64,000 bases of DNA from Candidatus Micrarchaeia archaeon (lineage in GTDB: Archaea > Micrarchaeota > Micrarchaeia > Anstonellales > Anstonellaceae), in the NCBI GenBank assembly GCA_041659465.1, contig JBAZYD010000008.1, positions 7,484 through 71,483 on the forward strand, given 5' to 3'. Shown here in pieces: positions 4,342 to 62,039 of this stretch. How positions within the stretch are numbered: position 1 is the stretch's first letter; every line of letters begins with the position of its first letter. The position numbers and the translations under genes are program-made. The notes below the pieces were generated by a model that saw only the letters and a program-made list of their open reading frames with translations, was not told the origin of the DNA and did not search any database.

Positions 4342-4369
4342 CAAAAAACAGTTGCGATGCGGGAAGGCG

Positions 4370-4669
4370 CTACGGGGGCATCCTGTAGACCTGCAGGTGC
4401 GGCACGCCGCCTATGTTTTTAGCGTACGAGACCGCGAGCCCTGCCTTTTTCGCGGCCTGCAAAGCGCGCCTGCCCACGATGTTGGCGTTCTGGGCGGCTT
4501 TCAGCGCCTCCACCGCCTCTTTCTCATCGACTTTTTTCCCCAAGTAGAATGGCGCGTAGGCGGACAGGTCAAGCCTTGCCTTGCCGCTTTCAAGCACCTT
4601 GCCGATGAGCTCGATGTCGCAGAGCGCGACAATCTCGCCGTCAGGGGAGGCGTGCGTTTTCAGGTACAT
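4370..4669 (-). CDS. DUF424-like conserved archaeal protein
   Basis: 99 aa, MYLKTHASPDGEIVALCDIELIGKVL... This matches my recollection of the DUF424 family pattern. A TATA (cctaataaaa, 4690-4699) lies about 26 nt upstream. Confidence 0.6.
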   Translation of the reverse strand: MYLKTHASPDGEIVALCDIELIGKVLESGKARLDLSAYAPFYLGKKVDEKEAVEALKAAQNANIVGRRALQAAKKAGLAVSYAKNIGGVPHLQVYRMPP

Positions 4670-4790
4670 GATGGAAAGTCGGAGGCAAGCCTAATAAAAG
4701 ATGGGGCGGGCGCAAAAGCGCGCGGCGGATAAATGGCGGGCTGCAAAGCCGGGCGTCAGCCTAATAAAATATTGGCATGGAAATCGGAGC

Positions 4791-5459
4791 ATGGGAAATA
4801 TTGCGCGCCCGCTTGCATTCATTATGCTTGCAGCAGCCATCCTGCTTTCCCCCGGGTGCGCGCAAGTCGGCGCGCCCGCCCGGAATGAGACCGCAAGCTC
4901 GGCGAGGTTCATCCTGCCAGCGTCGGATGTTTCATATTATGCGCGCTACACCGTGGAGGAAGGGGGGCCGGCGACAAAGGAGATCTGGCGCGCGAAGGGC
5001 ATGATGAGGATTGACCTGTCTTCGCAGGGGATGCGCGCGCTTTCATTCTTCTTCGTGGATTCGCACGCCTACTCGTGCTCCTACGCGTCATCCAAGCCTG
5101 CGTGCTATGATGTGAGCGGCGCGCTTTCGCAGGGGGATGCGCAGAGGCTGGTGCCGTCGGAAAATGATGCAAAGGGCGGCACGCGGCTGGAAAGCGTCAA
5201 AATCGGCAGCGCAAATGGCAACTGCTACGGGGTTCCAATAGGGATGATGGGCATGCGCAAGCTCTGCTTTGCCCCGCAGGGCGTGGTGGCGTATGATTCG
5301 TACAATGTGAGCAAGGCGCTGCTGCACACCGAATACCTGACGGACATTGAGTACTACGAGGATGGGCTGGGGCCTGATGCCTCGGTGTTCGCGCTCCCCG
5401 CAACGCCTATCCCCGCGCCAGCCGTGCCTGAGCCGGCTGCACCTGATTTTGAAGAATGA
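4791..5459 (+). CDS. predicted lipoprotein, function unknown
   Basis: The internal ATG at 4791 gives MGNIARPLAFIMLAAAILLSPGC (signal peptide plus lipobox-like Cys). A second copy of cctaataaaa (4760-4769) lies about 26 nt upstream. Confidence 0.55.
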   Translation: MGNIARPLAFIMLAAAILLSPGCAQVGAPARNETASSARFILPASDVSYYARYTVEEGGPATKEIWRAKGMMRIDLSSQGMRALSFFFVDSHAYSCSYASSKPACYDVSGALSQGDAQRLVPSENDAKGGTRLESVKIGSANGNCYGVPIGMMGMRKLCFAPQGVVAYDSYNVSKALLHTEYLTDIEYYEDGLGPDASVFALPATPIPAPAVPEPAAPDFEE

Positions 5460-11921: not shown

Positions 11922-13472
11922 TTACCTCCGTTTTGGCGCTTTGGGCGCCTTGCCGGCGCCGGCCTCGCCCTGGAGAATGGCAATCGCCTCGCCTTCCTGC
12001 CTGCCTGACGGCGACAGGGCGGAAAGTAGCTCGCGCTCCGATGCGCCAAGATCGCGGAGCAGCGAGATTGCGGACGCCTGCCCGTACCCGAATTTCGAAA
12101 GAAGCGCCGCAAACTCCAGCGCCTCAAGCGAGAAGCTGCGCCGCTCGAATTCCGACAGCACGGCGCGCGCCTGCGCGTCGGTCAGCCCGAACGATATGAG
12201 CCTTGATGAAAGCTCCCCTTTCTCGAATTCCAGGTCCATCCCACCACCCCGTATATGCTGCGCTACCAGGAGCTCTTCCCCGTCCACCTTGCGCAGCATG
12301 AAGGTGCGCGGGCAGGCGGCAGGGGACGAGAACTCCAGGTGCACGATTGCCTGCCCCACCGAGAGCGAATGCGACTCCTCCTCGTAAAAGTCAGAATATG
12401 CCAGGGAGGAGCGGACATAGCTGCGCTCCTGGGCATGCGTGAGGCGGAACAGGAGCATGGTGCCCGCGTTTGAGAAGATGCTCCTGTGCACGTCGGTCGG
12501 GCTCTGGGACGCCACAATGAGGCCGAAGCCGTATTTCCTCCCCTCGCGCACGATGGAGACCACGTCCGAGCGCTCGTCCGCCGCTATCTTCCACGCCTCG
12601 TCCACCACCACGAACAGGCGCGGGCGGGAGAGGGAGGAATACTCCGAGGCGCGCATGCTTTCCTTCACGAATTGGAGGATGGAAAGGCCTGCAAGAGAGC
12701 GCAGCGCCTCGGTCGGCAGCGAGTGCAGGTCCACGCAGACCAGCCCGGAGAGGAGGGAGGAAAGCGGCAGGGTGGATTTCGTGAACGAGCCTCCTGATGA
12801 GCAAAGCAGGTTCCTTATGCGCCGCGCGGCTTCCGCCGCATCGGCGCTGCGCCTTGATTGGCGTTCCAGTATGCGCACCACGCTCTCCAGCGTGGGCGGC
12901 CTTTTCCCGCTGTGGAGCCTGCCGCGCGCCTTCCCGGCCCCGGCATATGCCTTCTCCATCGCATCCTCGGTCATCCGGCACTGAGCCGGTGACGATGAGA
13001 TGTCGGTCAGCATGCGCAGCGAATCCATCACCTGCTGCGTGCGCGTGCGGGAGGAGCTTCCCGCCAGCTCGAGCAGGTTGATGCCCTCCTCGCCGAAGGA
13101 AACCACGCGCCCGCCTGCGCTTCGCACCCAGTCCGCGTACTCGCCTGCCCAGTCAAGTATGAGCGCGGACGCGCCAAGCGTGAGCCCTGCGCGCGTGATG
13201 AAGGTCTTTACGAAGTAGGACTTGCCCGAGCCCGTGGTGCCGACCACGCAGAGGTGCGGATTGAGGAGCTTTTTGCTGTTCCAGAAAAACGGCACGCCCA
13301 GGTATTTCGTCCGCCCGATGTAGACGGATTCCGAGGGAGGGGACAGCAGCAAATCTGGCGAAGGCTCAGGCGGCCTGAAAAGGAAGTCGCGTGATGCCAT
13401 CTGCCCCGAAAGCACCTTCTGCGAAGAGAGCATGCCGCACATAAATGGGAAATGGCACCCATAGCGCCCCAC
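11922..13472 (-). CDS. HerA/FtsK-superfamily ATPase (DUF87-like)
   Basis: Walker A VVGTTGSGKS, Walker B LFVVVDEAWK and the signature REGRKYGFGLIVASQSP. The start is uncertain: GTG at 13472 or ATG at 13400. Confidence 0.8.
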   Translation of the reverse strand: MGRYGCHFPFMCGMLSSQKVLSGQMASRDFLFRPPEPSPDLLLSPPSESVYIGRTKYLGVPFFWNSKKLLNPHLCVVGTTGSGKSYFVKTFITRAGLTLGASALILDWAGEYADWVRSAGGRVVSFGEEGINLLELAGSSSRTRTQQVMDSLRMLTDISSSPAQCRMTEDAMEKAYAGAGKARGRLHSGKRPPTLESVVRILERQSRRSADAAEAARRIRNLLCSSGGSFTKSTLPLSSLLSGLVCVDLHSLPTEALRSLAGLSILQFVKESMRASEYSSLSRPRLFVVVDEAWKIAADERSDVVSIVREGRKYGFGLIVASQSPTDVHRSIFSNAGTMLLFRLTHAQERSYVRSSLAYSDFYEEESHSLSVGQAIVHLEFSSPAACPRTFMLRKVDGEELLVAQHIRGGGMDLEFEKGELSSRLISFGLTDAQARAVLSEFERRSFSLEALEFAALLSKFGYGQASAISLLRDLGASERELLSALSPSGRQEGEAIAILQGEAGAGKAPKAPKRR

Positions 13473-13512
13473 GCGCAGGTGGCGTGCCGCACATAAACGG
13501 GATTTTGTATTT

Positions 13513-14460
13513 CTAAAACCGCCCCACTATCTTTTCCCTAAGCGTGTTGAGTATGTCTATCTTGGACGCTTCGGACGCGATGGAGTTGGATGCCACTATC
13601 TCCTCTGCGCCCGCAAGCTGCAGCTTGGTGTAGGCGTCGCCCAGGAACAGCCCGTGCGTGCAGCCGCAGCACACGGACGCGGCGCCGCGCGCAAGCACTG
13701 CCTTGGTGGCGCGTATCATCGTGCCGCCCCCTGCAATCATGTCGTCGAGTATCACCACGTCCCTGTCTTTTACCTCAAAATCTGCCTCAAGGGATTCCAC
13801 ATTGCGCACTGCCTGGCGCTTGTGGTTCTTGTACTCGCCGCGCTTCTTCACCATGCTCTTGCCGTCGGCCTCGTTCACCATGTATGCCGCGCCCTGGTCA
13901 GGGCTTATGAAAAGCGCGTCTGGCTTCCGCGCCTTGAAGTATGCCACCAGCTCCTCGGAAAGCGAGAAGTTCCGAAGCTGCAGGTTGCCATGGCGGAACA
14001 CGCCGGCTTTTTTGAGGAAGTGGCAGTCGAAGGTGGCAACGGACGTGAAGCCCGCGGCGGAAAGCATCTGCAGCACAATTTCGGCCGAGAGCGCCTCCCC
14101 GTGCTTCCAAATCTTGTCCTGGCGCGCGTAGGGGAGATAGGGGATGATTGCCTCTGTGCGGTTGGCGATAGCGCCCACGGTCTTGCCCATTATGAAAAGC
14201 TGGAGAAGCGAGGAGTCCTGCTTTGGGTAGCAGCGATGCAGTATCTGCACGTTCTTGCCGCGGCTTTCCTCAAGCCTGTGCATGAAGATGTGCGACTCCT
14301 TGTCGGGGAAGTTCCTAAGCTCTATGTTTGAGGAGTAGATGTATGAGCAGTTCTGGCTCACCATGAGGTGGTATGGCTTGCCGTCAGGGGGGGAAATCTC
14401 GGATGGAGCCGGCTTGAATTCGGGCGTCTGTTGTGCGCCCTCAGTTGCTTGCGCGACCAT
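13513..14460 (-). CDS. prs: ribose-phosphate pyrophosphokinase
   Basis: IIPYLPYARQDK and the VVILDDMIAGGGTMIRA PRPP-binding loop. TATA tttaaaa (14483-14489) lies 26 nt upstream. Confidence 0.9.
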   Translation of the reverse strand: MVAQATEGAQQTPEFKPAPSEISPPDGKPYHLMVSQNCSYIYSSNIELRNFPDKESHIFMHRLEESRGKNVQILHRCYPKQDSSLLQLFIMGKTVGAIANRTEAIIPYLPYARQDKIWKHGEALSAEIVLQMLSAAGFTSVATFDCHFLKKAGVFRHGNLQLRNFSLSEELVAYFKARKPDALFISPDQGAAYMVNEADGKSMVKKRGEYKNHKRQAVRNVESLEADFEVKDRDVVILDDMIAGGGTMIRATKAVLARGAASVCCGCTHGLFLGDAYTKLQLAGAEEIVASNSIASEASKIDILNTLREKIVGRF

Positions 14461-14544
14461 GATGGAAATTGGGCGAAACGGGTTTAAAAGTCTTGGTGCC
14501 GCCGCCCACTTTTTCCCCTTTTTTTCGAGGCGCGCCTTGGGCGG

Positions 14545-14586
14545 GCGCCCTTGGCTTACTTTTTCCTGAGAAGTTCATCTGCCTCG
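14545..14586. repeat. 42-bp perfect direct repeat, copy A
   Basis: gcgcccttggcttactttttcctgagaagttcatctgcctcg is identical to 15525-15566. Confidence 0.9.
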
Positions 14587-14626
14587 ACTGCGCCCGTGCG
14601 CCGGCGGAGCTATCCAAGATAAGCTG

Positions 14627-15406
14627 CTACAGCTTCACTTGTGCCATATTCTTGCCTATGTATGACTGTGGAGAGTATTTTGTAAACTTCTTCCTACTCC
14701 CGCTTATTTTCCCATTCAGCCTGAAAAACTCGGACGCAAAAGGTTCGCCTTTTTTTGACCTTGCCATCCGCAGCATGACCCCCATGAATGGGTTGATGAC
14801 GTGCACTGTTTTCTTGCCTGAAGACGTGAATATGGCAATATTCGGATCGCCTGTTTCCTCTGCATTCGCGGCAAACCCCCCGGATTCGCATGCGTCCACT
14901 GCCGCTATTTTCTGCCCTTCCAATGAACGGAACCAGGCTACAAACTTCTCGGAGTTGATGCTTGATTTCCTGAAGAAAATGGCCGACTTTCCTTTTTTCC
15001 TGCCCATTTCGCCATGGCCAGAGTATAAAAATAGCGAAACTGCGTCTTTCCCTGCGTTCGAATTGAAAAAATTGTGGATGTTTTTCCAGCTGTCGTCTGA
15101 TGTGTGGAAGATTTGGACAGCAAATCCCTTTGCCTCGAGGTTTTTTGCAATCTTCTTTGGGGCAATCTTTTTGAAGTAGAATTTATGCCCGGAAGCGAAT
15201 ATGAAAAGCGAGAAAAGCGTTGTAAACGTGCCCAATGTAATCAATGAGAAGGCGGAAAGATGTGGATTGATGATTAAACTGATGATTTGCAGGGTAAGCA
15301 CGGCTAGGCACCCCCAACCAAGGCGGCGGGCCATTTTGGATTTGGTTGCGTCTATTACTATTGCAGCCTGCTTTTTGGCAGGTGCGTTGCCAGGTATATC
15401 CTCCAC
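14627..15406 (-). CDS. membrane-anchored clan CD (legumain/caspase-like) cysteine peptidase homolog
   Basis: Two N-terminal TM helices, then LFLYSGHG (catalytic His-Gly) and, about 40 aa later, IAAVDACESGGF (legumain-like Cys). GTG start at 15406 with TATA tttaaaaa (15428-15435) 22 nt upstream. Visibly AT-richer than its neighbours. Confidence 0.6.
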   Translation of the reverse strand: MEDIPGNAPAKKQAAIVIDATKSKMARRLGWGCLAVLTLQIISLIINPHLSAFSLITLGTFTTLFSLFIFASGHKFYFKKIAPKKIAKNLEAKGFAVQIFHTSDDSWKNIHNFFNSNAGKDAVSLFLYSGHGEMGRKKGKSAIFFRKSSINSEKFVAWFRSLEGQKIAAVDACESGGFAANAEETGDPNIAIFTSSGKKTVHVINPFMGVMLRMARSKKGEPFASEFFRLNGKISGSRKKFTKYSPQSYIGKNMAQVKL

Positions 15407-15524
15407 GAGCCAATCTGCCTTGAAGTGTTTAAAAATAATGTGGTTAAAAAGTAAAAAAGTTGTTCGTTAGCGGGCGCGATGGTTTGCATTAATCCGCGCG
15501 GTTGCCGGTGTTTTGCTCGCTTGC

Positions 15525-15566
15525 GCGCCCTTGGCTTACTTTTTCCTGAGAAGTTCATCTGCCTCG
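15525..15566. repeat. 42-bp perfect direct repeat, copy B
   Basis: Identical to 14545-14586. It covers the last 9 codons, the stop and 11 nt downstream of the 53-aa GatE-tail ORF. Confidence 0.9.
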
Positions 15567-15697
15567 GCCGCATCCACCCTCAGGCGGTATTTTGCCATCA
15601 GGCGCGCGAGGTCGAGCTTTTCGCCGGAAATGAGCGCCCCAAGCGCGCTGCCCGTGATTTTTTCGAGCGAGAGCCTGAGCGCTGCATCAGCCGGCAT
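15536..15697 (-). CDS. 53-aa paralog of the GatE C-terminal tail
   Basis: Hand translation: MPADAALRLSLEKITGSALGALISGEKLDLARLMAKYRLRVDAAEADELLRKK. 33 of 49 aligned residues are identical to the last residues of GatE. It is below the track's size cutoff. Confidence 0.5.
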   Translation of the reverse strand: MPADAALRLSLEKITGSALGALISGEKLDLARLMAKYRLRVDAAEADELLRKK

Positions 15698-15712
15698 TGG
15701 GGGCAAACCTGC

Positions 15713-16231
15713 TTAAAGCGGCTCAAACTCCCCGATTTTCCTGTTCTTTCTCACTGCGTTCCACAGGAAGCATCTTCCATTCATGGCAATATAGACGCCG
15801 GGTGGAAGCGCCTGGGCGAAGGCTAGGGCGCTTCCGAAATTGAACAGCCCGTCCGAGCTTCCGAATTTGTATGGCACCATCGCGCCGGTGAGCACGATGG
15901 TCTTGTTCTTTATTTCCCTGGCCAAAACCGCGGCGGTTTCAACCATCGTGTCAGTCCCGTGGGTAATGACGATGTTTTTTGCCGGGCTGCCCTTGCAATT
16001 GTCCGAAATTATTTTCCTGTCGGCATCGGTCATGTCCAGGCTGTCAATCATCATCAGGGTGCGTATTTCCACTTCGACTTTGCACCTGCCTGTTTTCAGT
16101 ATCTCCGGCAAGTGGGTGTCCTTGAAGAACAGCCGCCCGTTCAGCTCATTATACTCTTTGTCAAAAGTTCCGCCAGTAACGAATATTGCTATCTTGCTTT
16201 CATTCATCCAATCAACCCCATGGGAAGTCAT
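15713..16231 (-). CDS. asparaginase/glutaminase N-domain-only protein
   Basis: 172 aa with VTGGTFDKEY and ITHGTDTM, the two Thr motifs of the asparaginase fold. The ATG at 16231 overlaps the gatE stop as ATGA; an alternative ATG lies at 16207. Confidence 0.7.
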   Translation of the reverse strand: MTSHGVDWMNESKIAIFVTGGTFDKEYNELNGRLFFKDTHLPEILKTGRCKVEVEIRTLMMIDSLDMTDADRKIISDNCKGSPAKNIVITHGTDTMVETAAVLAREIKNKTIVLTGAMVPYKFGSSDGLFNFGSALAFAQALPPGVYIAMNGRCFLWNAVRKNRKIGEFEPL

Positions 16232-18150
16232 TTTTTCGTCTTTTTCAGGAATTCCTGCGCTTCCGCCGCGTCCACCCTGAGGCGGTACTTTGCCATGAGC
16301 TCCGCGAGGCTGAGCTTTTCCTCATCGATAAGTGCTGCAAGCGACTTGCCGCTTATTTTGGAAAGCGAGAGCGTTTCCGTTGCAGATTTGGCGGTGGCTG
16401 CTGCGTCTTTGCACATTTCGCGCAGTATGTCCTGCATGGCGGCGCGCGCAAAAACGCCTTCCTGGCAGGCGGAAAGCGCAAAAAGCAGGCGCTCCTCGTC
16501 AAGCGCGCGCGTGTCTGAGCCTTCGCGCTTGAGGGATTGCAGCGTGTTTGTGATGGTGGAGGCGACGAGCTTGCCGTCGATTCCCGCCTCGATTGCGGTA
16601 ATATAAACCGAAAGCTCCGGAGTGAGCGCGCGGCTCTTGTGGGAGGGGGCGTGCGAGAGGAGCCCTTTTGCCGCGGCCAACTGCGCGGAAAGCTCGGCTG
16701 GGAGGGAGGAGAGGGCATCCTTTGTTTCTGCCTCGGATGCCTGGATGGCGCTTGCCGCTTTTTTTGCCGCTGCAAGCATTCCATCAGTTATCGATATGGG
16801 CTCCACGTCGGTTTCGGGATACATGCGCGCCCGGCCTGGCAGCGGGCGCATGTAGCTGGAGGTGCCATCAGGGTTGGCGCGGCGGGTTTCCTCGATTATC
16901 GTGAATCGTATTGCGCGGCTGAAAGCGGCGGAAAGCGCTGCGCGCGCCTTTTTTTCGTCGGCGACCACCAGGAGGAAGGCATCCTCGGGCTTGAGCGAAA
17001 GCGCCATGCGAAGCTCGGAAATCTCGTCGTCCGAAAAGCCGTATTTCTCCATGCTCTCGTCCGAGTGCACCAATCCGCGCACGCCGTAGGCGCGCGCATA
17101 GTCGGCAAGCTCGCTGCCGAAGCGGCGGTTGGGCGAGATTTCAGTGCCGAGAAGCCCTGCGTATTTGGGAAGGGGGATGGCAAGCACGCGCGCATGGCCC
17201 TTGAGCGCCTTTGAGACCATCTGGCACTGCGTGTTCGCAAATGCGTCCGTGATGTCGAATATGCTCTCAGGCGGCAGCTTGCCTGCGAGGCGCGATTTTG
17301 CCTCGGAAAGTACAGATAGGAGCTTTTCCTGGCGCTGCACCTCGAGGTCCACGGTAAGCGCGATTAATGAGAGGTCCTGCACGCCCTTTATTTCCACGCG
17401 CGCGCCTTGCGGGATGGAAATGTTGAGGTCCTGGCGTATGGTGCCTATGCCGCGGCTCACCATGCCGGTTTTCCGCAGCAGCGTGCCTATTGCAAGCGCG
17501 GCTTCCTGCGCCTCCTTTCCAGAGTGCAAATCAGGCGAGGTGGCGATTTCGACAAGGGGAATGCCGAGGCGGGACAGGTCGTATTGCGCATGCTCTCCCC
17601 TGCCTTGCATAGGCTGCCCGCCAGATGTGGAGCCGTCTTTCCCCTCCATTATGCCTGCGCTTTCCTCCTCTATGCAGATTGTCTGTATGGGAAGCTTGCC
17701 GGACTTGGTGCTGATGAAGCCTCCAATCCCGATGATTGCGGTGCGCTGGAAGCCCGAAGTGTTGCTGCCGTCAATCACGTTCTTGCGCATGACATGGAGC
17801 ACGTCCACTGGCTGTGAAGAAAGGAGGGAGCATATCGTGAGGGAGGAGTGCAGGGCTTCGGGCGAGAGGGAGTGCGGCGGCTCCTCGTCGGATTCCACCA
17901 GGCAGGTGGAGGGCGCGGGCGCAACATAGGAGAACGTGCGGCTGCGGCTCGCCTCCGCCGCGGAGGCTGCGTCCACCTCGCCAAGCTCGGAGCGCACGGT
18001 GTGCAGCCTGCGGGTGAAATTTTCGGATTCAGGCGCGCCTTGCGCAGGGCTGGATGGGCCTGCCGTTGCATCGCCTGCCTCAGGTGGCACGCAGGAGCAG
18101 AACAGCTTCCTGCCGGACAGGCGCTGGTGTATTTCAAGGCCGCACATCAT
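16228..18150 (-). CDS. gatE: Glu-tRNA(Gln) amidotransferase subunit E
   Basis: MMCGLEIHQRL N-terminus, a GatB/E-type core and a C-terminal tail. The track start at 18165 is TTG; ATG lies at 18150. Confidence 0.9.
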   Translation of the reverse strand: MMCGLEIHQRLSGRKLFCSCVPPEAGDATAGPSSPAQGAPESENFTRRLHTVRSELGEVDAASAAEASRSRTFSYVAPAPSTCLVESDEEPPHSLSPEALHSSLTICSLLSSQPVDVLHVMRKNVIDGSNTSGFQRTAIIGIGGFISTKSGKLPIQTICIEEESAGIMEGKDGSTSGGQPMQGRGEHAQYDLSRLGIPLVEIATSPDLHSGKEAQEAALAIGTLLRKTGMVSRGIGTIRQDLNISIPQGARVEIKGVQDLSLIALTVDLEVQRQEKLLSVLSEAKSRLAGKLPPESIFDITDAFANTQCQMVSKALKGHARVLAIPLPKYAGLLGTEISPNRRFGSELADYARAYGVRGLVHSDESMEKYGFSDDEISELRMALSLKPEDAFLLVVADEKKARAALSAAFSRAIRFTIIEETRRANPDGTSSYMRPLPGRARMYPETDVEPISITDGMLAAAKKAASAIQASEAETKDALSSLPAELSAQLAAAKGLLSHAPSHKSRALTPELSVYITAIEAGIDGKLVASTITNTLQSLKREGSDTRALDEERLLFALSACQEGVFARAAMQDILREMCKDAAATAKSATETLSLSKISGKSLAALIDEEKLSLAELMAKYRLRVDAAEAQEFLKKTKK

Positions 18151-18173
18151 AGCTACCACGTTCAAACCGCAAA

Positions 18174-19550
18174 CTAGAAGTCAAAATCCACTATTTCCGA
18201 GCGCACGGAAATCTCGCCCGCGATGTTTTTCTCCATCATTTCGCGCACGCGCGCCATTTTCTTCTCGCGCCCAAGCACCCATATCAGCTTGGCGTATGCC
18301 GCCTCCGGCGTGAAGTCGCACATGTGCCCGATTGCGCCTGCCTCGGCAAGCACCCTGCCGGACGAGTAGACGTTGAGGTTTATCCTGCCGTAAATCGTCT
18401 GCGGCGCGATTACCACCGGGATGCCGGAAGAGATGAGCGCGGAAATCTCCTTGATGACCGGCACGGCATCCTTGTTGTTGGAGGTATTCGAGGGCACGTG
18501 CCCAAGCCCGGTACCCGCAATCACCACGCCGTCGTATTTTGAGAGGGAAGCCAGCATTTCAGGCTTTATGCCAGGGTAAGAGTAGATGAGCGCGACGTTG
18601 GGGTTGAGCCTGGTGTCAAGCAAGAGCTTGCCTTGGTTCCTCGGCTGCGCGAGTTGGGAGATTCTCTCGAACTTGCCCGAAAGCGGGGACACGCGCGCTG
18701 CGGGCCTGCAGTTTATGGAACGGAAGGCGTCGCGCCGCGACGTGTGCATCTTTCGCACCTTGGCGCCGAAGTGGAGGAGGCAGGAGTCGTCCGAGAGGTT
18801 CTCATGCATGCAGATGAACACGCCGGACAAATCAGAGCCTGCGCCAAGAAGAGCAGCCTGCATGTTGAGCGCCGCATCGGACGAGCTCCTGTCCGAGCTT
18901 CGCTGGCTGCCTGTGAAAATCACAGGGCAGGGAAGGTTTTGCAGCATGAAAGAGAGCGCCGCGGACGAATAGGACATCGTGTCCGTGCCGTGCGTGATGG
19001 CCACGCCCTGCGCGCCGTCGTTTATTTCGTCGGCCGCAGCCTGCGCGATTTTCTGCCAGTGGACTGGCGTGGTGTCCTCGGATGATATTGAAAAGAGCGA
19101 TTTCGCGCGCAGCGGCTTTTTCGAGAGGTGGGCAAATGCGTCCACAAGCTCCGCAGGCGTGGTTGCCGCATCCACTGCGCCTGTGCGGTAGTCGATTCTG
19201 GAGGCTATGGTGCCTCCGCAGCCCAGTATGGTGAGGAAATCCTTCTTTGGCGCCGAAGCGGCGCGCACCTGAGCAGCCGAGGACGGGGGCTTCCCGGTTT
19301 CGACTACCTTGATTTTCTGCACGTTTTCCTTCCTTATCCCTATGTTGTAGCCTGAGGAAAGCTTGATGGAGATTGCACTTGGGTCGGAGGACGGGAGCAA
19401 TATTCCCTTGTGCTCGCCGCTTGGGCCTGAAACCAGAACCGAGTCGCCCGGCTGGGCGGCGTTTTCAGCCGCGCCTTGCCCGATGGCGCCAGGAACGGCT
19501 TGCCTGCCGGACGGCGCTGCGGGGGCTTTTTGGGATTTTGCCTTTGCCAT
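18174..19550 (-). CDS. gatD: Glu-tRNA(Gln) amidotransferase subunit D
   Basis: Asparaginase-like domain (LGCGGTIAS, ITHGTDTM). The ATG at 19550 (MAKAKSQK...) fits the shared-TATA geometry. The upstream 43 codons of the track ORF overlap the promoter. Confidence 0.9.
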   Translation of the reverse strand: MAKAKSQKAPAAPSGRQAVPGAIGQGAAENAAQPGDSVLVSGPSGEHKGILLPSSDPSAISIKLSSGYNIGIRKENVQKIKVVETGKPPSSAAQVRAASAPKKDFLTILGCGGTIASRIDYRTGAVDAATTPAELVDAFAHLSKKPLRAKSLFSISSEDTTPVHWQKIAQAAADEINDGAQGVAITHGTDTMSYSSAALSFMLQNLPCPVIFTGSQRSSDRSSSDAALNMQAALLGAGSDLSGVFICMHENLSDDSCLLHFGAKVRKMHTSRRDAFRSINCRPAARVSPLSGKFERISQLAQPRNQGKLLLDTRLNPNVALIYSYPGIKPEMLASLSKYDGVVIAGTGLGHVPSNTSNNKDAVPVIKEISALISSGIPVVIAPQTIYGRINLNVYSSGRVLAEAGAIGHMCDFTPEAAYAKLIWVLGREKKMARVREMMEKNIAGEISVRSEIVDFDF

Positions 19551-19571
19551 GCAGGAAATTGGGCGCCTCAG

Positions 19572-19579
19572 TTTTAAAT
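19572..19579. promoter_or_regulatory. shared central TATA box (ttttaaat) of a divergent pair
   Basis: It lies 22 nt from the ATG at 19550 (minus) and 23 nt from the ATG at 19602 (plus). Confidence 0.6.
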
Positions 19580-19601
19580 GGCTAGGTGGCGAAATAGGCA
19601 T

Positions 19602-20690
19602 ATGGGATATGAAGAGAAGCTGCGCGAGCTCGAAGAGGAGATGGCGCGCACGCAGAAGAACAAGGCTACCGAGTACCACATCGGGCTTCTCAAGGCAAAG
19701 ATTGCAAAGCTCAAGCGCGAGATAATCGCGCCCAAGAAATCAGGCGTGAGGACTGGCGGCTTTGACGTCAAGAAAAGCGGGGACGCCACGGTTGTCTTCA
19801 TCGGCTTGCCCTCGGTCGGAAAGTCCACACTGCTGAACGTGCTGACAGGGGCTAAATCAAAAACGGCTTCATATGCCTTCACCACGCTCACATGCATTCC
19901 AGGCGTGATGGAATACAACGGGGCGAAGATACAGCTTTTGGACTTGCCCGGCATTATTGTCGGGGCGAAAGAGGGAAAGGGGCGCGGCAAGGAAGTGCTT
20001 GCTGTTGCAAGGAATGCTGACCTTGTGCTCATACTTCTCGATGTTTTCCAGCCCGGCATCCTTGCGAACATAAAGGACGAGCTTGCGGGCATAGGCATCC
20101 GCCTTGACGAGGAGCCGCCCAAGATATACATTACAAAAAAACTCCGGGGAGGAGTGGAGATAAATTCCACCGTGCCGCTCACCAAGCTGAACGAGAGGAT
20201 GATAACGGGCGTGATAAACGAGTACGGGATGCACAATGCGTCCATTGTCTTCCGCGAGGATGCCACCGTGGACAGGCTCATCGACGTGCTTGCAGGCAAC
20301 CGCAAGTACAACCACTCGCTTGTCGTGCTCAACAAGGTGGACATGGTGAGCGAGGAATACCTCAAGGCGATAAAATTCGACTATGTGCCTGTTTCCGCAG
20401 AGAAAGGGCAGAATGTCGAGGAACTGAAGAAGGCGATTTTTGATGGCCTGCGCATGATGAGGGTGTACACCAAGCCGCGCATGGACGTTGCAGATTTGAA
20501 GGAGCCCATGATGATGAGGACAGGGGCCACTATCGAGGATGCGTGCAACAGGCTGCACCGCGACCTCGCGCGCGACTTCAAGTACGCGCTCGTCTGGGGC
20601 AAGAGCGCGAAATTCCCTGGGCAGAAGGTGGGCATACAGCACGTGCTGCAGGAAGGGGACATTTTCTCGATAATTAAGAAGCAGGGATAG
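19602..20690 (+). CDS. DRG-family GTPase with TGS domain
   Basis: GLPSVGKSTLLN, FTTLTCIPG, DLPGII, NKVD and a C-terminal TGS-like segment. Confidence 0.9.
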   Translation: MGYEEKLRELEEEMARTQKNKATEYHIGLLKAKIAKLKREIIAPKKSGVRTGGFDVKKSGDATVVFIGLPSVGKSTLLNVLTGAKSKTASYAFTTLTCIPGVMEYNGAKIQLLDLPGIIVGAKEGKGRGKEVLAVARNADLVLILLDVFQPGILANIKDELAGIGIRLDEEPPKIYITKKLRGGVEINSTVPLTKLNERMITGVINEYGMHNASIVFREDATVDRLIDVLAGNRKYNHSLVVLNKVDMVSEEYLKAIKFDYVPVSAEKGQNVEELKKAIFDGLRMMRVYTKPRMDVADLKEPMMMRTGATIEDACNRLHRDLARDFKYALVWGKSAKFPGQKVGIQHVLQEGDIFSIIKKQG

Positions 20691-20723: not shown

Positions 20724-21326
20724 ATGATTACAACCATTATCTTTGACCTTTCAGAAGTATATCTTACAGGGCTTCTGGGCGCAGAGCACAACCTGGAAAA
20801 AATACTCGGAATCAAGGCAAATGAGATAAAAAGAGGGCTGACTGGACCGGAATTGGCTGCTTTTTTCCATGGCGAACTGACAGAGGATGAATATTGGCTG
20901 AGAATTATTGAGAAACACAAATGGAAAGCCAGTGCTGGCGAACTCAAGAAAGCCGTCCGGAAAAACTTCAACGAGATAGAGGGAACCAGGAAGATTATGG
21001 AGCAATTGAAGGAGGATGGCTTCAGATTGGGATTGTTATCGGTGCATACGAGGGAATGGGTGGATTACTGCGAGGGAAAATTCGGCTACCATAAATTATT
21101 CCATTCCACGCTGTATTCATTCGAAGCCGCAGCATCAAAGCCGGACAAGAAGGTTTATCGGATGATCCTCACGAAGCTGAAATCATCGCCGGAAGAATGC
21201 ATTTTCATCGATGACCATCCAGAGAACCTGATTCCAGCCAGGGAGATGGGGATGAAGGCTGTTCTTTTCAAGAATTCCAGGCAGTTGAAACGAGACTTGG
21301 CTTTCTTGGGGATTGCTGTACGCTAA
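20724..21326 (+). CDS. HAD-superfamily hydrolase
   Basis: N-terminal IIFDLSEVY (DxS/DxD-type motif I) and FIDDHPEN (motif IV). Visibly AT-richer than its neighbours. Confidence 0.75.
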   Translation: MITTIIFDLSEVYLTGLLGAEHNLEKILGIKANEIKRGLTGPELAAFFHGELTEDEYWLRIIEKHKWKASAGELKKAVRKNFNEIEGTRKIMEQLKEDGFRLGLLSVHTREWVDYCEGKFGYHKLFHSTLYSFEAAASKPDKKVYRMILTKLKSSPEECIFIDDHPENLIPAREMGMKAVLFKNSRQLKRDLAFLGIAVR

Positions 21327-23006: not shown

Positions 23007-23055
23007 TTGGGGCTTTTGACCTGAATTAATAAACATGGCTCGCCAATCTGACTGC

Positions 23056-23907
23056 ATGCCAAAAAAACGCGCGGGTTTTGCAGGCAATCTCTGGAATGCC
23101 TGGGTGTGGGTCGCATCAGGCCTACTCCGCGCCCCGTATCTTGCCACTAAATTCTTCATTTGGGCAATGAGCGCTGCCCTGGGCAAAGCGTCTGCGGCAA
23201 GGGAATGTGCAGCGGTAAAATCAAGCAAGCCGCGCACGGGCGCAGTGTATCAGCCGCTTGCGCTCCAAAAACGGCTGGCAGGCAATCTTGACGAATTCGA
23301 GGGGAAGCTGCTGGCGTCAAAAAGCACGATTGGGCTGGTGCTGGGAGCACGGGGGAGCGGCAAGTCGGCACTGGGCATGCGCATACTTGAAAATATTGCC
23401 GCGAAGGGGGGCAGGAAAGTCTGTGCCATGGGCTTTGACGAGTCCGCGCTCCCGGATTGGATACGCCCCGTGCACGGCGTGGAGGAGGTCCCAAACGGCG
23501 CGTTCGTGCTGATTGACGAGGGAGGCATCACTTTCTCCTCACGTTCGTCGCAGTCGCCTGCAAACAAAATCCTGTCTTCATTGCTCCTTGTGGCAAGGCA
23601 CAAGGACCTCTCGGTGCTTTTCATTTCGCAAAATTCCGCCAATCTCGAGATAAACACCATTAGGCAGGCGGATTACCTCCTGATGAGAAAGCCTTCTCTT
23701 CTGCAGAAGGAGTTCGAGCGGAAAAAAATCGGGCAGATTTACGATGAAATAAGCGCGCAGTTTGCAGGCCTGGAAGACACTGGCAGATATTCCACCTACA
23801 TCTATTCAGACGAATTCCGGGGGTTCGCAGCAAACGCGCTTCCGGATTTTTGGAGCCAGAAGGCGAGCAAGTCGTTCGCCGATTTCAAGGCAGGCCGCCC
23901 TAAATGA
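23056..23907 (+). CDS. small FtsK/HerA-superfamily P-loop ATPase (Zot/packaging-ATPase-like)
   Basis: Walker A LGARGSGKSALG, Walker B AFVLIDEGG and the signature VARHKDLSVLFISQNSANL. The start at 23056 fits TATA ttaataaa (23023-23030); the track start is 23035. Confidence 0.65.
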   Translation: MPKKRAGFAGNLWNAWVWVASGLLRAPYLATKFFIWAMSAALGKASAARECAAVKSSKPRTGAVYQPLALQKRLAGNLDEFEGKLLASKSTIGLVLGARGSGKSALGMRILENIAAKGGRKVCAMGFDESALPDWIRPVHGVEEVPNGAFVLIDEGGITFSSRSSQSPANKILSSLLLVARHKDLSVLFISQNSANLEINTIRQADYLLMRKPSLLQKEFERKKIGQIYDEISAQFAGLEDTGRYSTYIYSDEFRGFAANALPDFWSQKASKSFADFKAGRPK

Positions 23908-27119: not shown

Positions 27120-27132
27120 CTAGGTGATATAT

Positions 27133-28197
27133 ATGGAAACAAAAAAAATGCCGTTGCTTTTCGCATTCGCCGTAGTGGCGGCAATCTCGCTTTTTGCCGC
27201 TGGCTGCGCCCAGAATGGCAGTGGTTTGTCTTCAGGCCAGGGAAGGGCGGTGTTCACTGTGGCAGATGCTGCGGCGGACATGGGCACTGTTACAAGCGTG
27301 AAAGTGACTGTGGACCGCCTCGAGGTGCAGCATGCCGCCAGTGGATGGACGACTGTTTCCTCGACCCCGTACACATACGACCTTATGCAGCTTCGGGCAA
27401 GCAAAAGCCAGTCGCTCATGGCTGACGCAAAGCTTGAAGCCGGCTCCTATGGGCAGGTGCGCATGCACATATCCAGGGTGACTGTTACCGATTCTTCCGG
27501 CGAACATGAGGCAAAACTGCCTTCAAACGACCTGAAGATTGTTGGAGGCTTCGAGGTAAAGCCGAATGCAACGACAGTGGTGACCTTTGACTTCCTGGCG
27601 GACAAGTCCGTCCACGTGGCAGGCAATGGCAAGTACATCCTGGCGCCGGTGGTGCGCATGCAGGGGCGGGAAGATGCCGAGGTTGACGCAAGCTCCAGGG
27701 AAGACGTCAAGGTAACCGACGGCAGGGTCAGGACCGACACCGAAGTCGGCATGGATGCCGAGGGCAATGTCGGGGTTGGAGCAGGAATACCTGCAAATGC
27801 CAACATAACAATCGATGGGGGCACCATAGTGGTGCTCGGGCTGCTCCCGCGCGCGTGCACGGCGGATGCAAAGATATGCCAGGATGGCAGCGTGGTGGGC
27901 AGGCAGGGGCCTGATTGCGAGTTTGCAGCATGCCCGCAAGGATGCTCAAAGGAGGCCAAGACCTGCCCGGGCGGCAGCGTGGTGGGCAGGCAGGGGCCTG
28001 ATTGCGAGTTCGAGGCCTGCCCAAAGGAAAACAGCCTGGCAGCATGCATAGCCATTTCCAGCCAGCCTGAACGGCTTTCCTGCATAGCGATGTGGTGCGG
28101 GTCTGAAAACAGGGATTTCAACAAATGCTACAATCTTACAGATGAGAACGACAAGCTCGGGTGCCTGAACAAGTGCAACCCGAACTCGAACATCTGA
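27133..28197 (+). CDS. lipoprotein with DUF4382-like N-domain and two 4-Cys modules
   Basis: METKKMPLLFAFAVVAAISLFAAGC lipobox. The VKVTVDRLEVQ...YDLMQL...GSYGQVRMHISRVTV pattern is followed by ACTADAKICQDGSVVGRQGPDCEFAACP and CSKEAKTCPGGSVVGRQGPDCEFEACP. Confidence 0.65.
   Translation: METKKMPLLFAFAVVAAISLFAAGCAQNGSGLSSGQGRAVFTVADAAADMGTVTSVKVTVDRLEVQHAASGWTTVSSTPYTYDLMQLRASKSQSLMADAKLEAGSYGQVRMHISRVTVTDSSGEHEAKLPSNDLKIVGGFEVKPNATTVVTFDFLADKSVHVAGNGKYILAPVVRMQGREDAEVDASSREDVKVTDGRVRTDTEVGMDAEGNVGVGAGIPANANITIDGGTIVVLGLLPRACTADAKICQDGSVVGRQGPDCEFAACPQGCSKEAKTCPGGSVVGRQGPDCEFEACPKENSLAACIAISSQPERLSCIAMWCGSENRDFNKCYNLTDENDKLGCLNKCNPNSNI
27886..27923 (+). repeat. 38-bp perfect in-frame direct repeat, copy 1
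   Basis: ggcagcgtggtgggcaggcaggggcctgattgcgagtt is identical to 27973-28010 (offset 87 bp, or 29 codons). Confidence 0.9.
27973..28010 (+). repeat. 38-bp perfect in-frame direct repeat, copy 2
   Basis: Identical to 27886-27923. Confidence 0.9.
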
Positions 28198-28463
28198 ATG
28201 GTTCGCAAGGGCAGATAGCCCGAAAGTGGTGCAGGATATGCAAATGTCATTGGCGCGGTTCGGGGCAGATGCTGAAGGCGGGCCAGCAATGCCGGAAGGG
28301 GAGGGCGGAGGCTCGCGCGCCATGGCAGAAGAAGATGCTCCCGGGCCCATTGAAATCGATATTTCAGAGGGCTGGGAGCGGACAGGGGTGGCGGGGCTTT
28401 TCCATAACGCAGCGGAATTCCTTATAATTTCCATTACGGGCTGCGAACCAAGAAGGTGACCAT

Positions 28464-29246
28464 ATGAAGATGATTTTGATGATTGCGGTGCTGTTTGTCT
28501 CGTTGTTTGCATTTGGCTGCACCCAGAATGGGCCTGTTGCTCCGCGCGCGTGCACGGCGGATGCGAAAATATGCCCGGATGGAAGCGCAGTCGGAAGGGC
28601 GGGCCCCAATTGCGAGTTTGCAGCCTGCCCGTCAGGTGGCAACAATACGCCCCCGCCAGGCAACAGCACCACTCCGATAGTGTGCTCATGCCCCAATGAT
28701 CAGGCGCCGGTATGCGGCGCGGACGGCAAGACGTATTCAAATAACTGCTATGCCGCGTGCCTGAATGTGCAGGTGTCCCATTCCGGCAGGTGCGGGTTCG
28801 AAATCTACCCGCCTGCATGCATGGGGGATGCAATTCGCTGCCCTGGCGGCTCGTATGTCTTTAGGGCTGGGCTGGATTGCGCATTTGCAGCCTGCCCGCA
28901 GGCAAATTACACCCTTCCGCCCGCCCCGCCGGCCAACTACACGCTTTATGGGAAGGTGACCATTGGCCCGCTCTGCCCGGTTGAGCCGTGCAGCAGGGTG
29001 TTTGACTATAGCGTGGTGCGCGTGAATGTCTACAACGCCACAAGCAAGGCATTGGTTGTCCAGGCAAGCGCTGCTTCCAGCGGCTATTACGGAGTCAAGC
29101 TCGGGATAGGCAGCTACCTGGTGAATGTGACGGATGCATCGGGCGCATCGTTCGGGCTGCCGCGCCTGGATTACACCCAAGCATTCACAATCGAGAAGGG
29201 GCATTTGGTCCAGATGGACTTTGACATAGACACCGGGATAAGATAG
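28464..29246 (+). CDS. lipoprotein with 4-Cys modules, a Kazal-like domain and a beta-sandwich C-terminus
   Basis: MKMILMIAVLFVSLFAFGC lipobox. It contains ACTADAKICPDGSAVGRAGPNCEFAACP, CSCPNDQAPVCGADGKTYSNNCYAACLNVQVSHSGRC (Kazal pattern, about 28683-28793) and PACMGDAIRCPGGSYVFRAGLDCAFAACP. Confidence 0.65.
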   Translation: MKMILMIAVLFVSLFAFGCTQNGPVAPRACTADAKICPDGSAVGRAGPNCEFAACPSGGNNTPPPGNSTTPIVCSCPNDQAPVCGADGKTYSNNCYAACLNVQVSHSGRCGFEIYPPACMGDAIRCPGGSYVFRAGLDCAFAACPQANYTLPPAPPANYTLYGKVTIGPLCPVEPCSRVFDYSVVRVNVYNATSKALVVQASAASSGYYGVKLGIGSYLVNVTDASGASFGLPRLDYTQAFTIEKGHLVQMDFDIDTGIR

Positions 29247-35827: not shown

Positions 35828-35956
35828 GCGCTGCCCGCCAATTTCCTAAAGCATGTTTGCCTCTTTTTGCGGAATGGATGGGGAATATTTTCCGCCAAGG
35901 CAAAAAAGTGTGCAATTGCCAAGCTTTTTAATTACCTCATCTCTAATACGCCTTGT

Positions 35957-36031
35957 AGCGGGATAGGGTAGTTTGGAGTGCCCGCTGGGCTCATAACCCA
36001 GAGATCAGTGGTTCAAATCCACTTCCCGCTA
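35957..36031 (+). tRNA. initiator tRNA-Met (CAU)
   Basis: 75 nt with A1:U72 (AGCGGGA/TCCCGCT+A) and anticodon arm CTGGG-CTCATAA-CCCAG carrying three G:C pairs, both archaeal initiator hallmarks. T arm AGTGG-TTCAAAT-CCACT. Confidence 0.9.
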
Positions 36032-36338
36032 TTCTCCTTTTCGCTTTTTTTTGCGTTGGTTTTTCCTTTTTCATTTCCCAAAAAGCCAGGCCCCCACCCG
36101 CCCTGGGACCCCCATACTTCCTATAATAATAAAAGATATATTTGATTGTATATATATGTAACTATGGTTACAATAAACAACTATAAACATCACAAACAAC
36201 AAAAATCATCGAATACAAACGCAAAACACCCACCCTTTATTACCGGAACTCCAGGGGTGGGTGGCTAGAGGCAAAACGGGCAAAAAGGCGCGTGCTGGGG
36301 AATGAAAAACAAAAAGAGGGCCTGGAAAACAAGAACAG

Positions 36339-50135: not shown

Positions 50136-50684
50136 CTACGGCTTTTTCAGCCCGAACTTCCCAGTCCCGTATTTATCCCAATACATCCATTTCTTCTCAA
50201 GTTCAACGCCGGCGCTCTCCTTGATATAATCGCCAATTGTGGAATATAATCCAAATCTAAGTTCACCGGCGCTTGCCCCGAAAATATTGTTGATTGGCGC
50301 GTGGAGGATGGCAAACCAAAAGCGCGTTGAAAAAAAGGCCTTTGCCCCGCCATCATCCCGAATGCAGTCCCCTATTATTTTTCTGACCGCTTCTTCAAGC
50401 TTCTCCTTGTTATCTGTGTTGGCTTTAAGCGCATTGGAAATTTTCTTTGAAAGGCTCCAAAGAAAACCATCGCCGATTATTCCTTCGTTGTATGCAGTCT
50501 GAAGATGGTTTTTCGGCTTGCCATTTTGGGCAACGCAGGCATTTTTCAAAGCCAGAAAGCATGCGCGTTCCGAAGATTTTGCCCTTTGCGTGTCTTGGAT
50601 GGTTGGGATGGTTGAATTCTTGGCGGACTGCTGGGGGGTTACTGCGTTGGCGGGAGATTTCTTATATATCTGGAATTGGAACAT
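50136..50684 (-). CDS. hypothetical protein
   Basis: 182 aa from the ATG at 50684. TATA tttaaat (50707-50713) is centred 26 nt upstream. AT-richer than its neighbours. The track's longer start would overlap the next gene. Confidence 0.45.
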   Translation of the reverse strand: MFQFQIYKKSPANAVTPQQSAKNSTIPTIQDTQRAKSSERACFLALKNACVAQNGKPKNHLQTAYNEGIIGDGFLWSLSKKISNALKANTDNKEKLEEAVRKIIGDCIRDDGGAKAFFSTRFWFAILHAPINNIFGASAGELRFGLYSTIGDYIKESAGVELEKKWMYWDKYGTGKFGLKKP

Positions 50685-50776
50685 GTATAAAAAATGGCAG
50701 AAACAGTTTAAATCGATTTCCCCAACGCCACGATTTCCTAAAGGATTTTGTCGCACGGCTTTGATTTTTGGCAGTT

Positions 50777-57188: not shown

Positions 57189-58070
57189 ATGTCTGACGAA
57201 GGAACTCCTTACCTCTATTTGGCGCTTACCATCCTTTTATGGTCTGCAACTCCTGCCGTGGCAAAGCTTGCATTGGCAGAAATAAACAACGTGCAGATGC
57301 TTTTCTACAATAACATTGTGGGCATAATTGTGCTATCTGCAATCATCATCTTCCAAAAAAAGCAGCGCCTGTTTTCAAACTACTCCAAAGGCGATTACCT
57401 CAAGATGCTCGGAATGGGGTTCCTTGGCCTTTACCTGTACTATATTTTCCTCTACGGCAGCTTCAGCATCGCACCCGCCGGCCAGGCCAACATGATAAAC
57501 TACCTATGGCCGGTTTTTGTGGTGTTATTCTCCATCCTGATTTTGAAAGAGAAGTTCACATGGAAGACGTTTCTTGCGATTTTTCTTGGTTTTTTGGGCG
57601 CCATTCTCGTGGTTACCCGGGGCAACCTCTCAAATTTGCAAAACGAATACACCTTTGGGTATTTCCTGGCCTTTTGCGCGGCAGCCTGCTACGGGCTCTT
57701 TTCAGTATTGGGAAAAAAGCTCAACTATGATAAATTCACCAGCATGCTTGTCTTCTATGTCGCGTCCCTTCTCCTGATAACGCCCACCATGCTGGTGTTC
57801 TCAAAATTCATCATTCCCCAGTCGCCAACCACGTGGCTCGTCATACTTTTCTTGGGAGGGCTGTCAAATTCGCTGGGATTTGTATTTTGGTTCAAGGCGC
57901 TTGAGAAAGGCAAGACCCACCGCATGGCGAATTTAATCTACATCACGCCATTTGTTTCCCTGATATATGTGTATTTCCTTAATGGAGAAGTAATCCCTGT
58001 AATTTCCATTGCTGGACTGGCGCTCATTATAGGCGGGGTGCTGTTACAGCTCAAAACCGGAGAAAAATAA
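57189..58070 (+). CDS. EamA/DMT-family transporter
   Basis: 293 aa, about 10 TM helices arranged as two repeats. TATA ttaataag (57160-57167) lies 22 nt upstream. AT-richer than its neighbours. Confidence 0.75.
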   Translation: MSDEGTPYLYLALTILLWSATPAVAKLALAEINNVQMLFYNNIVGIIVLSAIIIFQKKQRLFSNYSKGDYLKMLGMGFLGLYLYYIFLYGSFSIAPAGQANMINYLWPVFVVLFSILILKEKFTWKTFLAIFLGFLGAILVVTRGNLSNLQNEYTFGYFLAFCAAACYGLFSVLGKKLNYDKFTSMLVFYVASLLLITPTMLVFSKFIIPQSPTTWLVILFLGGLSNSLGFVFWFKALEKGKTHRMANLIYITPFVSLIYVYFLNGEVIPVISIAGLALIIGGVLLQLKTGEK

Positions 58071-62016: not shown

Positions 62017-62039
62017 TCCCACAAAATTCACCAAAGCAG

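Follow-up and report, generated by a model that had tools for sequence, protein, structure and literature searches.

In the 64,000-nucleotide stretch of a Candidatus Micrarchaeia archaeon genome analyzed here (contig JBAZYD010000008.1; hereafter the window, in whose numbering all positions are given), the space between gatE and prs, the genes for Glu-tRNA(Gln) amidotransferase subunit E and ribose-phosphate diphosphokinase, carries a recent, lineage-specific insertion of a single horizontally acquired gene that is predicted to encode a cysteine peptidase. The insert lies between two perfect 42-bp direct repeats, GCGCCCTTGGCTTACTTTTTCCTGAGAAGTTCATCTGCCTCG, at 14545-14586 (copy A) and 15525-15566 (copy B), which show no mismatches and whose starts are 980 bp apart. 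We interpret the arrangement as an insertion because about 20 lineages in which the gatE-prs region is syntenic lack the cassette gene, and seven of them have gaps of only 45-161 nt at this position. The locus can best be regarded as a minimal form, lacking an integrase, of the archaeal att-repeat signature, situated in a newly documented Micrarchaeota hotspot. A sequence-only reading made earlier had proposed a site-specific insertion with target duplication, or an att-like core. The insertion, which may be site-specific, is borne out by our analysis, but plain target duplication is disfavored by a short sequence arm adjoining copy A.

The two repeat copies (both exact matches, with no strand assigned) differ in their surroundings. 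Copy B, which we term attL-like, covers the final nine codons and the stop of a displaced gatE tail rather than the end of the resident gatE, and it comprises the last 28 coding nucleotides of this mini-open reading frame (mini-ORF), its stop codon, and 11 nt downstream. Copy A, the attR-like counterpart, is located 40 nt beyond the stop codon (14627-14629) of the cassette gene, and its low-coordinate side runs into native gatE-prs intergenic DNA. In coordinates, spacing and placement, the repeat is exactly as the sequence-only reading had described it. The check for further copies suggested at that time yielded no third copy in the window at up to three mismatches and no exact match to the 42-mer in JGI contigs, nor was a 33-nt part of it matched in IMG/VR. 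Essentially no match of this length is expected by chance (0 of 100 dinucleotide-preserving shuffles gave one), and the 42-mer is the sole long perfect dispersed repeat of the window. On one side the similarity extends imperfectly, reaching 63 nt at 86% identity.

The repeat is real, because independently built k=31 Logan unitigs, from groundwater sequencing run SRR18595301, in which the strain is present, give all four junctions and the 42-mer at twice the depth of its flanks. The unitig on the prs side (14436-14574, depth 5.4) ends 30 nt into the repeat, the cassette unitig (14557-15554, depth 7.5) carries 30 nt of the repeat at either end, and the unitig on the gatE side spans 1583 nt (15537-17119, depth 5.7). 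Between them stands a unitig consisting of the 42-mer alone, whose depth of 12.6 equals the sum of its in-edges. The same 1583-nt unitig crosses, without a break, the junction between the mini-ORF and the neighboring asparaginase-like gene. Moreover, another study's 2018 sample contains the junction between the cassette and copy B without mismatch. An assembly artifact as the origin of the repeat, which had been named as a finding that would overturn the original interpretation, is thus contradicted by these data. The somewhat greater depth of the cassette unitig could reflect an effect of GC content on coverage, which is low here, or a slight excess of cassette copies.

The insert has a foreign composition, and relatives do not carry it. 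Its 938 bp (14587-15524) have a GC content of 47.1%, which falls within the lowest 0.4% of 938-nt windows (mean 56.7%, standard deviation 3.4%), and the GC content at third codon positions of the cassette gene is 0.56, versus 0.72-0.80 in the adjoining genes. The earlier impression of an AT-richer cassette is therefore upheld by the composition and codon check. The only ORF in the insert is the peptidase gene (14627-15406, minus strand), which is preceded by 118 nt of non-coding DNA (15407-15524, minus strand) that reads as an archaeal promoter of its own and that has no match in any fetched locus. A TATA-like ATTTTTAAA at 15428-15436 is centered about 26 nt before the GTG start, a spacing implying that the cassette transcript would be leaderless, and the same geometry is seen at the prs promoter (TATA at 14483-14490). 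The N-terminus of the protein, MED...KQAAIVID, aligns with those of its homologs, in agreement with the GTG start. The first reading, of one gene that has a TATA box to itself and begins with GTG, is thus well supported.

The 259-amino-acid product matches Pfam Peptidase_C14 (PF00656) with an E value of 3e-5, and its AlphaFold (AF2) model, with a predicted local distance difference test score of 86, shows two long N-terminal helices (residues 21-92) followed by the peptidase domain. Structural matches of the model include legumain, caspase-7, MALT1, and the GPI transamidase PIGK, each with a probability of 1.0. Judged from the model, the protein is predicted to be a cysteine peptidase of clan CD (caspase/legumain fold) with an intact His/Cys dyad; His131 and Cys173 are invariant across 17 homologs. 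The N-terminal helices form a putative membrane anchor, given their hydrophobic sequence. Just 28 homologs were recovered at E ≤ 1e-3 among 1.8 billion representatives. These range from 125 to 411 amino acids, two longer multidomain matches aside, and share the N-terminal motif M-E-[DN]...KQA-I-[IV]-D. The nearest homolog (locus L059; labels of this form denote fetched comparison loci or contigs) has 67% amino acid and 75% nucleotide identity and resides on a contig of 46% GC in another gene context. Two other lineages carry the homolog as an ordinary gene of the chromosome, facing the gene for a class Ib aminoacyl-tRNA synthetase in convergent orientation. We found no match to the peptidase in IMG/VR, among PLSDB plasmids, or among INPHARED phages, and likewise none in PADLOC, in NCBIfam, or, by sequence, in the PDB.

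The immediate inner flank of copy A provides a clue to how the insert arrived. At 14587-14616 (minus strand) there is a degenerate, GC-rich gatE-tail fragment of 24-30 nt, a putative element-borne arm, which is in register with the block coding for MAKYRLRVDA, the only conserved nucleotide block of gatE tails. Across the edge of the repeat, identity drops from 42 of 42 positions to 15-18 of 30 when compared with gatE tails, against a background of 8.2 ± 2.5 and a maximum of 17 in 1770 windows. A position weight matrix test on the same segment gave an empirical p of 6e-4, or 1e-3 with a GC-matched background. The fragment is not the usual 3′ flank of the peptidase gene, since homology of the cassette to L059 ends before it (12 nt past the stop codon by blastn, about 17 by eye). 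The abrupt switch from perfect to roughly 55% identity would mark a recombination junction between two diverged copies, rather than uniform decay or a staggered-cut duplication. Because a degenerate gatE-tail piece adjoins copy A, att-like recombination is favored over plain target-site duplication.

Relatives of its gatE place the organism, which comes from groundwater, among the Candidatus Micrarchaeota (DPANN). All genes of the locus lie on the minus strand, in the order gatD (18174-19679), gatE (16228-18165), the asparaginase-like gene, the mini-ORF, copy B, the cassette, copy A, prs (13513-14460), and a gene for a HerA/FtsK-like ATPase (11922-13472). We compared this locus with 20 others from GTDB genomes and JGI metagenomes, representing related Micrarchaeota lineages, and the gatD-gatE-prs-herA synteny is kept in all 20 (about 20 lineages). 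Here gatE (Pfam GatB_N and GAD) forms the conserved upstream border and prs (identified by Pfam and NCBIfam, 89-97% identical in relatives at the amino acid level) the downstream border, and the ATPase gene stands beside prs in every relative whose sequence extends far enough. None of these relatives has the 259-amino-acid cassette gene or the second gatE tail. The arrangement in the window is specific to its lineage, and an ancient local duplication shared among relatives, which the sequence-only reading had named as the outcome that would speak against it, is thereby set aside.

The intergenic space between gatE and prs is an insertion hotspot, because relatives differ widely in how far the prs start lies from the gatE stop (45-1691 nt, as against 1768 nt in the window) and hold varied, unrelated small cargo there. 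Five lineages have gaps of 45-50 nt, and two have gaps of 103 nt (L002) and 161 nt. Gaps of 378-496 nt hold a 72-amino-acid ORF on the opposite strand or other DNA, a 618-nt gap in L092 holds only the asparaginase-like gene, gaps of 650-693 nt hold a pilin-like gene, and the 1691-nt gap of L007 holds a pilin-like gene together with a nucleotidyltransferase/HEPN pair. The pilin-like cargo is archaeal in type and lies on the opposite strand, the pair, a toxin-antitoxin pair of MNT/DUF86-like type, was recognized by sequence appearance, and the ORF of 72-73 amino acids is conserved and contains Cys. These cargoes come from L007 (7882-9500) and from the gaps of L005, L095, L004, L074, and L076. 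The gatE-prs spacer of L070 (2214-2374) has two near-perfect 20-nt palindromes, CCCACGCCTTCCAGGCGTGGG and CCCATGCCTTCAGGCATGGG, which might act as terminators or represent a miniature repeat element.

The prs promoter, GGCACCAAGACTTTTAAACCCGTTTCGCCC, lies within the 95 nt that separate copy A from prs and is common to L002, L077, and L078. Copy A is therefore contiguous with native intergenic DNA, given that the adjoining promoter region is conserved in relatives. Deleting the 938 bp and one copy of the repeat would leave a gatE tail, 95 nt, and prs, an arrangement like that of L002 with its 103-nt gap. The nearest relatives are 75-88% identical at the DNA level and are too diverged to carry the 42-mer itself. 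In NCBIfam the HerA/FtsK-like ATPase scores best, though far below every family cut-off, against CedB and CedD, which are DNA-import proteins of the Ced type, and against VirB4-like ATPases. It is possible, on these sequence matches, that a DNA-translocation gene lies beside the recombination hotspot.

The mini-ORF that ends in copy B (15536-15706, minus strand; 56 amino acids, or a 53-amino-acid gene in public data) is a displaced and diverged gatE C-terminal tail, which we call tail2 to distinguish it from tail1, the tail of the resident gatE at 16228-16400. Its homology to gatE begins within a few nucleotides of the stop codon of the asparaginase-like gene, and it is 67-79% identical in amino acid sequence to the gatE tails of relatives. 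The sequence-only reading had recognized a gatE tail here, correctly. It is no copy of tail1: the two are 66% identical at the nucleotide level, and tails of different lineages are 60-80% identical. The proportion of synonymous differences (pS) between tail2 and tail1 is 0.54, near saturation, and the ratio of nonsynonymous to synonymous differences (pN/pS) between tail2 and the tails of relatives is 0.39, inside the range of functional tails (0.27-0.39). Because its divergence from tail1 is at the level of lineages and its pN/pS is like that of functional tails, tail2, whose reading frame is intact, is not a copy made locally in recent times, and it is not a relic that decayed long ago. These values suggest that until recently it was, most likely, part of a functional gatE, in this lineage or another, and it may be a recently orphaned gene end rather than an independent gene. 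When the tail2 peptide was searched at the protein level for a donor, only the peptide itself and a 75% identical fragment of 69 amino acids came back. With regard to the origin of the resident tail, sliding-window and per-gene identities place all relatives at about equal distances.

Between tail1 and tail2 lies the asparaginase-domain gene (asn; 15713-16207, minus strand), which encodes 164 amino acids matching PF00710 within an ORF of 172 amino acids that is extendable to 16231. Its homologs are 73-88% identical, and some are labeled bacterial. In the Micrarchaeota loci fetched, among them L066, L069, L101, and L102, asn mostly follows a cupredoxin gene, including in the metagenome-assembled genome that supplied L003. 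The gatE-asn junction is shared only with L092 (asn at 4363-4878), which lacks tail2 and the peptidase gene. Compared with L092, the asn segment of the window is 86-96% identical and the adjoining gatE tail 60-68%, and synonymous divergence is 0.33 for asn versus 0.45-0.54 for gatD, gatE, prs, and herA. This lower divergence hints that asn was separately transferred. Judged from its setting, asn is apparently a second hotspot insert, flanked by the two gatE tails, and its flanks match each other. A tail relic following asn in L092 looked suggestive by eye but was not significant (p = 0.35) and was dropped. The locus as a whole contains three gatE-tail-derived segments in series, namely tail1, tail2, and the 24-30 nt plus 42 nt at copy A, each of which follows a gene.

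A second case in which the same asparaginase-like gene sits between direct duplicates occurs in another Micrarchaeota metagenome-assembled genome, where it is enclosed by tandem paralogs of 153 and 159 amino acids. A perfect 29-nt repeat covers the promoter and start of each paralog (L066 4467-4495 and 5545-5573; also L067 and L068).

How the cassette came to lie between the repeats can be explained in several ways. The account that we tentatively favor, at somewhat less than an even chance, is att-like recombination of a circular DNA carrying the single gene, catalyzed in trans or by host homologous recombination. The chromosomal partner would have consisted of the 31 nt that end a gatE tail and 11 nt of intergenic DNA, and the incoming partner, probably circular, would have had these 42 bp within a diverged gatE-tail-like segment of its own. 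A reciprocal, Campbell-type crossover within the 42 bp would then leave an attL-like and an attR-like copy at the junctions. Such a scheme presupposes a circular intermediate, and it would draw either on a recombinase encoded elsewhere or on host homologous recombination acting on the 42-bp identity. The geometry is that of a Campbell-type product, with native outer sides, foreign inner sides, a core of identity, and one inner arm that is a diverged homolog of the target. Several observations weigh against this account. Pfam searches revealed no integrase, transposase, or other recombinase in the insert or among 47 ORFs scanned in the window, consistent with the first reading, and 938 bp leave no room for a decayed integrase. 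The target is a displaced tail fragment rather than a functional gatE end, and the evidence for the degenerate arm spans 30 nt. Neither a strain-level empty site with a single 42-mer nor a circular junction was found in searches of JGI contigs with the exact 42-mer and of IMG/VR with the 33-nt part, and in the k=31 graph an integrated cassette looks identical to an empty site accompanied by a 980-bp circle. Finally, no flanking repeats were found around the other hotspot inserts in relatives, and recombination that forms repeats is thus not the general mode of insertion at this hotspot.

A second explanation is a mosaic, formed without any dedicated mobile unit when diverged Micrarchaeota haplotypes recombined, by an illegitimate or a homology-facilitated route, at a locus prone to recombination. 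Fragments brought in and held by conserved gatE and prs sequence would have been joined imperfectly, thereby duplicating pieces of the gatE tail (tail1/tail2, and the 42-mer). Different lineages do carry unrelated cargo free of repeats, and the three serial gatE-tail segments, the low synonymous divergence of asn from L092 relative to flanking genes, and the ATPase gene adjoining prs, despite its Ced matches being below cut-off, fit such a history. So does tail2, whose functional-like pN/pS combined with a lineage-level pS points to import from another lineage. By itself, however, a mosaic leaves unexplained a perfect 42-bp duplication around exactly one promoter-plus-gene unit, and the relatives are about equally distant, with no donor or breakpoint identifiable. 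We consider this explanation unlikely, if still a serious one. Target-site duplication, in which a transposase-like or casposase-like enzyme, or end-joining repair, gives rise to a break with a 42-nt stagger, a linear foreign fragment is ligated there, and filling in duplicates the 42 bp, seems rather unlikely. It would produce a perfect repeat with sharp boundaries and native outer flanks, and it would suit a compact insert that has no mobility genes and for which no att-type recombinase was found. Yet the insert has no terminal inverted repeats, transposase, or Cas1, and a gatE-tail block beside copy A would be unexpected (p of about 0.001). Moreover, known prokaryotic duplications are far shorter, typically from a few bp to about 15 bp, and about 14-15 bp for casposons, and the 42 bp observed here exceed these lengths. 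A misjoin, in which the chromosomal site is in fact empty and the contig has wrongly taken in a separate cassette that has the 42-mer in common with it, be it a 980-bp circle or part of another strain, is very improbable. The k=31 graph fits both topologies, and cassette depth is somewhat above that of the flanks, but all four junction k-mers exist, the depth of the 42-mer is accounted for by its in-edges, and the integrated form rests on the original 73.8-kb contig. Standard assemblers finish at k values above 42 and hence need reads that span the repeat, which counts against a misjoin. Even then, the shared 42 bp would be real and att-like.

Several established classes of mobile DNA were tried and rejected for this insert. 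Transposons and insertion sequences do not fit, since neither 14587 nor 15524 shows terminal inverted repeats and there is no transposase, and casposons fail for want of such repeats and of Cas1 among the ORFs scanned. An integron cassette was rejected because there is no attC-like hairpin (the 42-mer and its 131-nt contexts fold like shuffles, with z of -0.6 to +0.5), there are no matching inverted repeats, and no intI occurs in the ORFs scanned. An integrative mobile element exploiting Xer was likewise discarded: the site is not conserved among relatives, and the 42-mer is without the marked dyad symmetry that the architecture of dif sites would call for. The only tRNA gene of the window is at 35956-36032, away from the insert, and a search for structured RNAs in 13000-17000 gave no Rfam hit at E ≤ 1.

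The closest likeness is to archaeal elements flanked by att sites, such as the SSV-type and pNOB8-type tyrosine-recombinase elements and the integrated mobile genetic elements of Thaumarchaeota. Crenarchaeal att sites measure 29-69 bp, with a median of 45, and 14 of 68 integrated elements in Thaumarchaeota target the 3′-distal part of protein genes (PMC6563490). Like these, the locus has a perfect repeat of typical length into which the 3′ end and stop codon of a protein-coding sequence extend, and an insert that is foreign and absent from relatives. It differs from them in that the insert has no integrase, whether intact, split, or decayed, is only 938 bp long with one cargo gene, and has as its target a displaced gatE tail fragment rather than a functional gene end. 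There is also some resemblance to the tycheposon islands of Prochlorococcus (bioRxiv 10.1101/2020.12.28.424599), which occupy a fixed hotspot beside a conserved gene, leave partial 3′ ends of their targets in series (here the three gatE-tail segments), and have cargo that persists without mobility genes. Those islands, however, use tRNA targets and possess recombinase and replication modules, whereas the present islet, which is shorter than 2 kb, has the tail of a protein gene as its target and shows no recombinase. Integron cassettes share with this locus a single-gene unit of about 1 kb that lies beside another such unit and has no recombinase inside it. Unlike them, the present unit has its own promoter and identical direct repeats as its boundaries, and is accompanied by neither an attC-like hairpin nor intI. 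Campbell-type "pop-in" integration predicts this very product, in which direct copies of the segment common to both molecules enclose the insert and the flanks of the incoming molecule face inward, here as the degenerate arm beside copy A. That process is a laboratory and plasmid phenomenon and, to our knowledge, has not been described as a natural route for gene cassettes in DPANN archaea.

DPANN archaea have tiny genomes, and gene gain in them is poorly understood; the locus offers a clean example of such gain, recent and limited to one foreign gene. Should the 42-bp repeats prove to be genuine att sites acted on in trans, the unit would be a very small mobile one and would point to an unrecognized recombinase or recombination route, and if they are not, the region would still constitute a well-documented insertion hotspot. 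A more far-reaching proposal is that Micrarchaeota harbor a class of minimal, integrase-less, promoter-plus-gene cassettes that move at the gatE 3′ end by way of an att-like core of about 42 bp acted on in trans, and that have built an array of asn and peptidase genes marked by gatE-tail remnants. We regard this generalization as quite doubtful. Were it true, such cassettes would be archaeal functional analogs of integron cassettes or satellite elements, aimed at the tail of a protein gene. The locus would become notable only if the 980-bp unit were shown to excise and re-integrate. A more general caution is that apparent mini-genes, such as the 56-amino-acid ORF, can be displaced gene tails.

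Other parts of the window also depart from its 57% GC average. Genes of 45-51% GC are found at 20724-21326 (an HAD hydrolase), 50136-50810 (an ORF without a Pfam hit), 57189-58070 (an EamA transporter), and 61078-62735 (two adjacent ORFs). Same-strand duplicates enclose the two hotspot genes but none of the four other low-GC gene regions of the window that were tested. At 23035-23907, an ORF of 290 amino acids gives a weak hit (E = 8e-6) to the Zot-family P-loop ATPases, a family often encountered on mobile elements, filamentous phages among them. A 95-nt repeat is present in four copies, with 64-83% identity to the reference copy, across 27847-28903 over adjacent ORFs at about 27124-29246, one of which hits DUF4382 and another Kazal domains.

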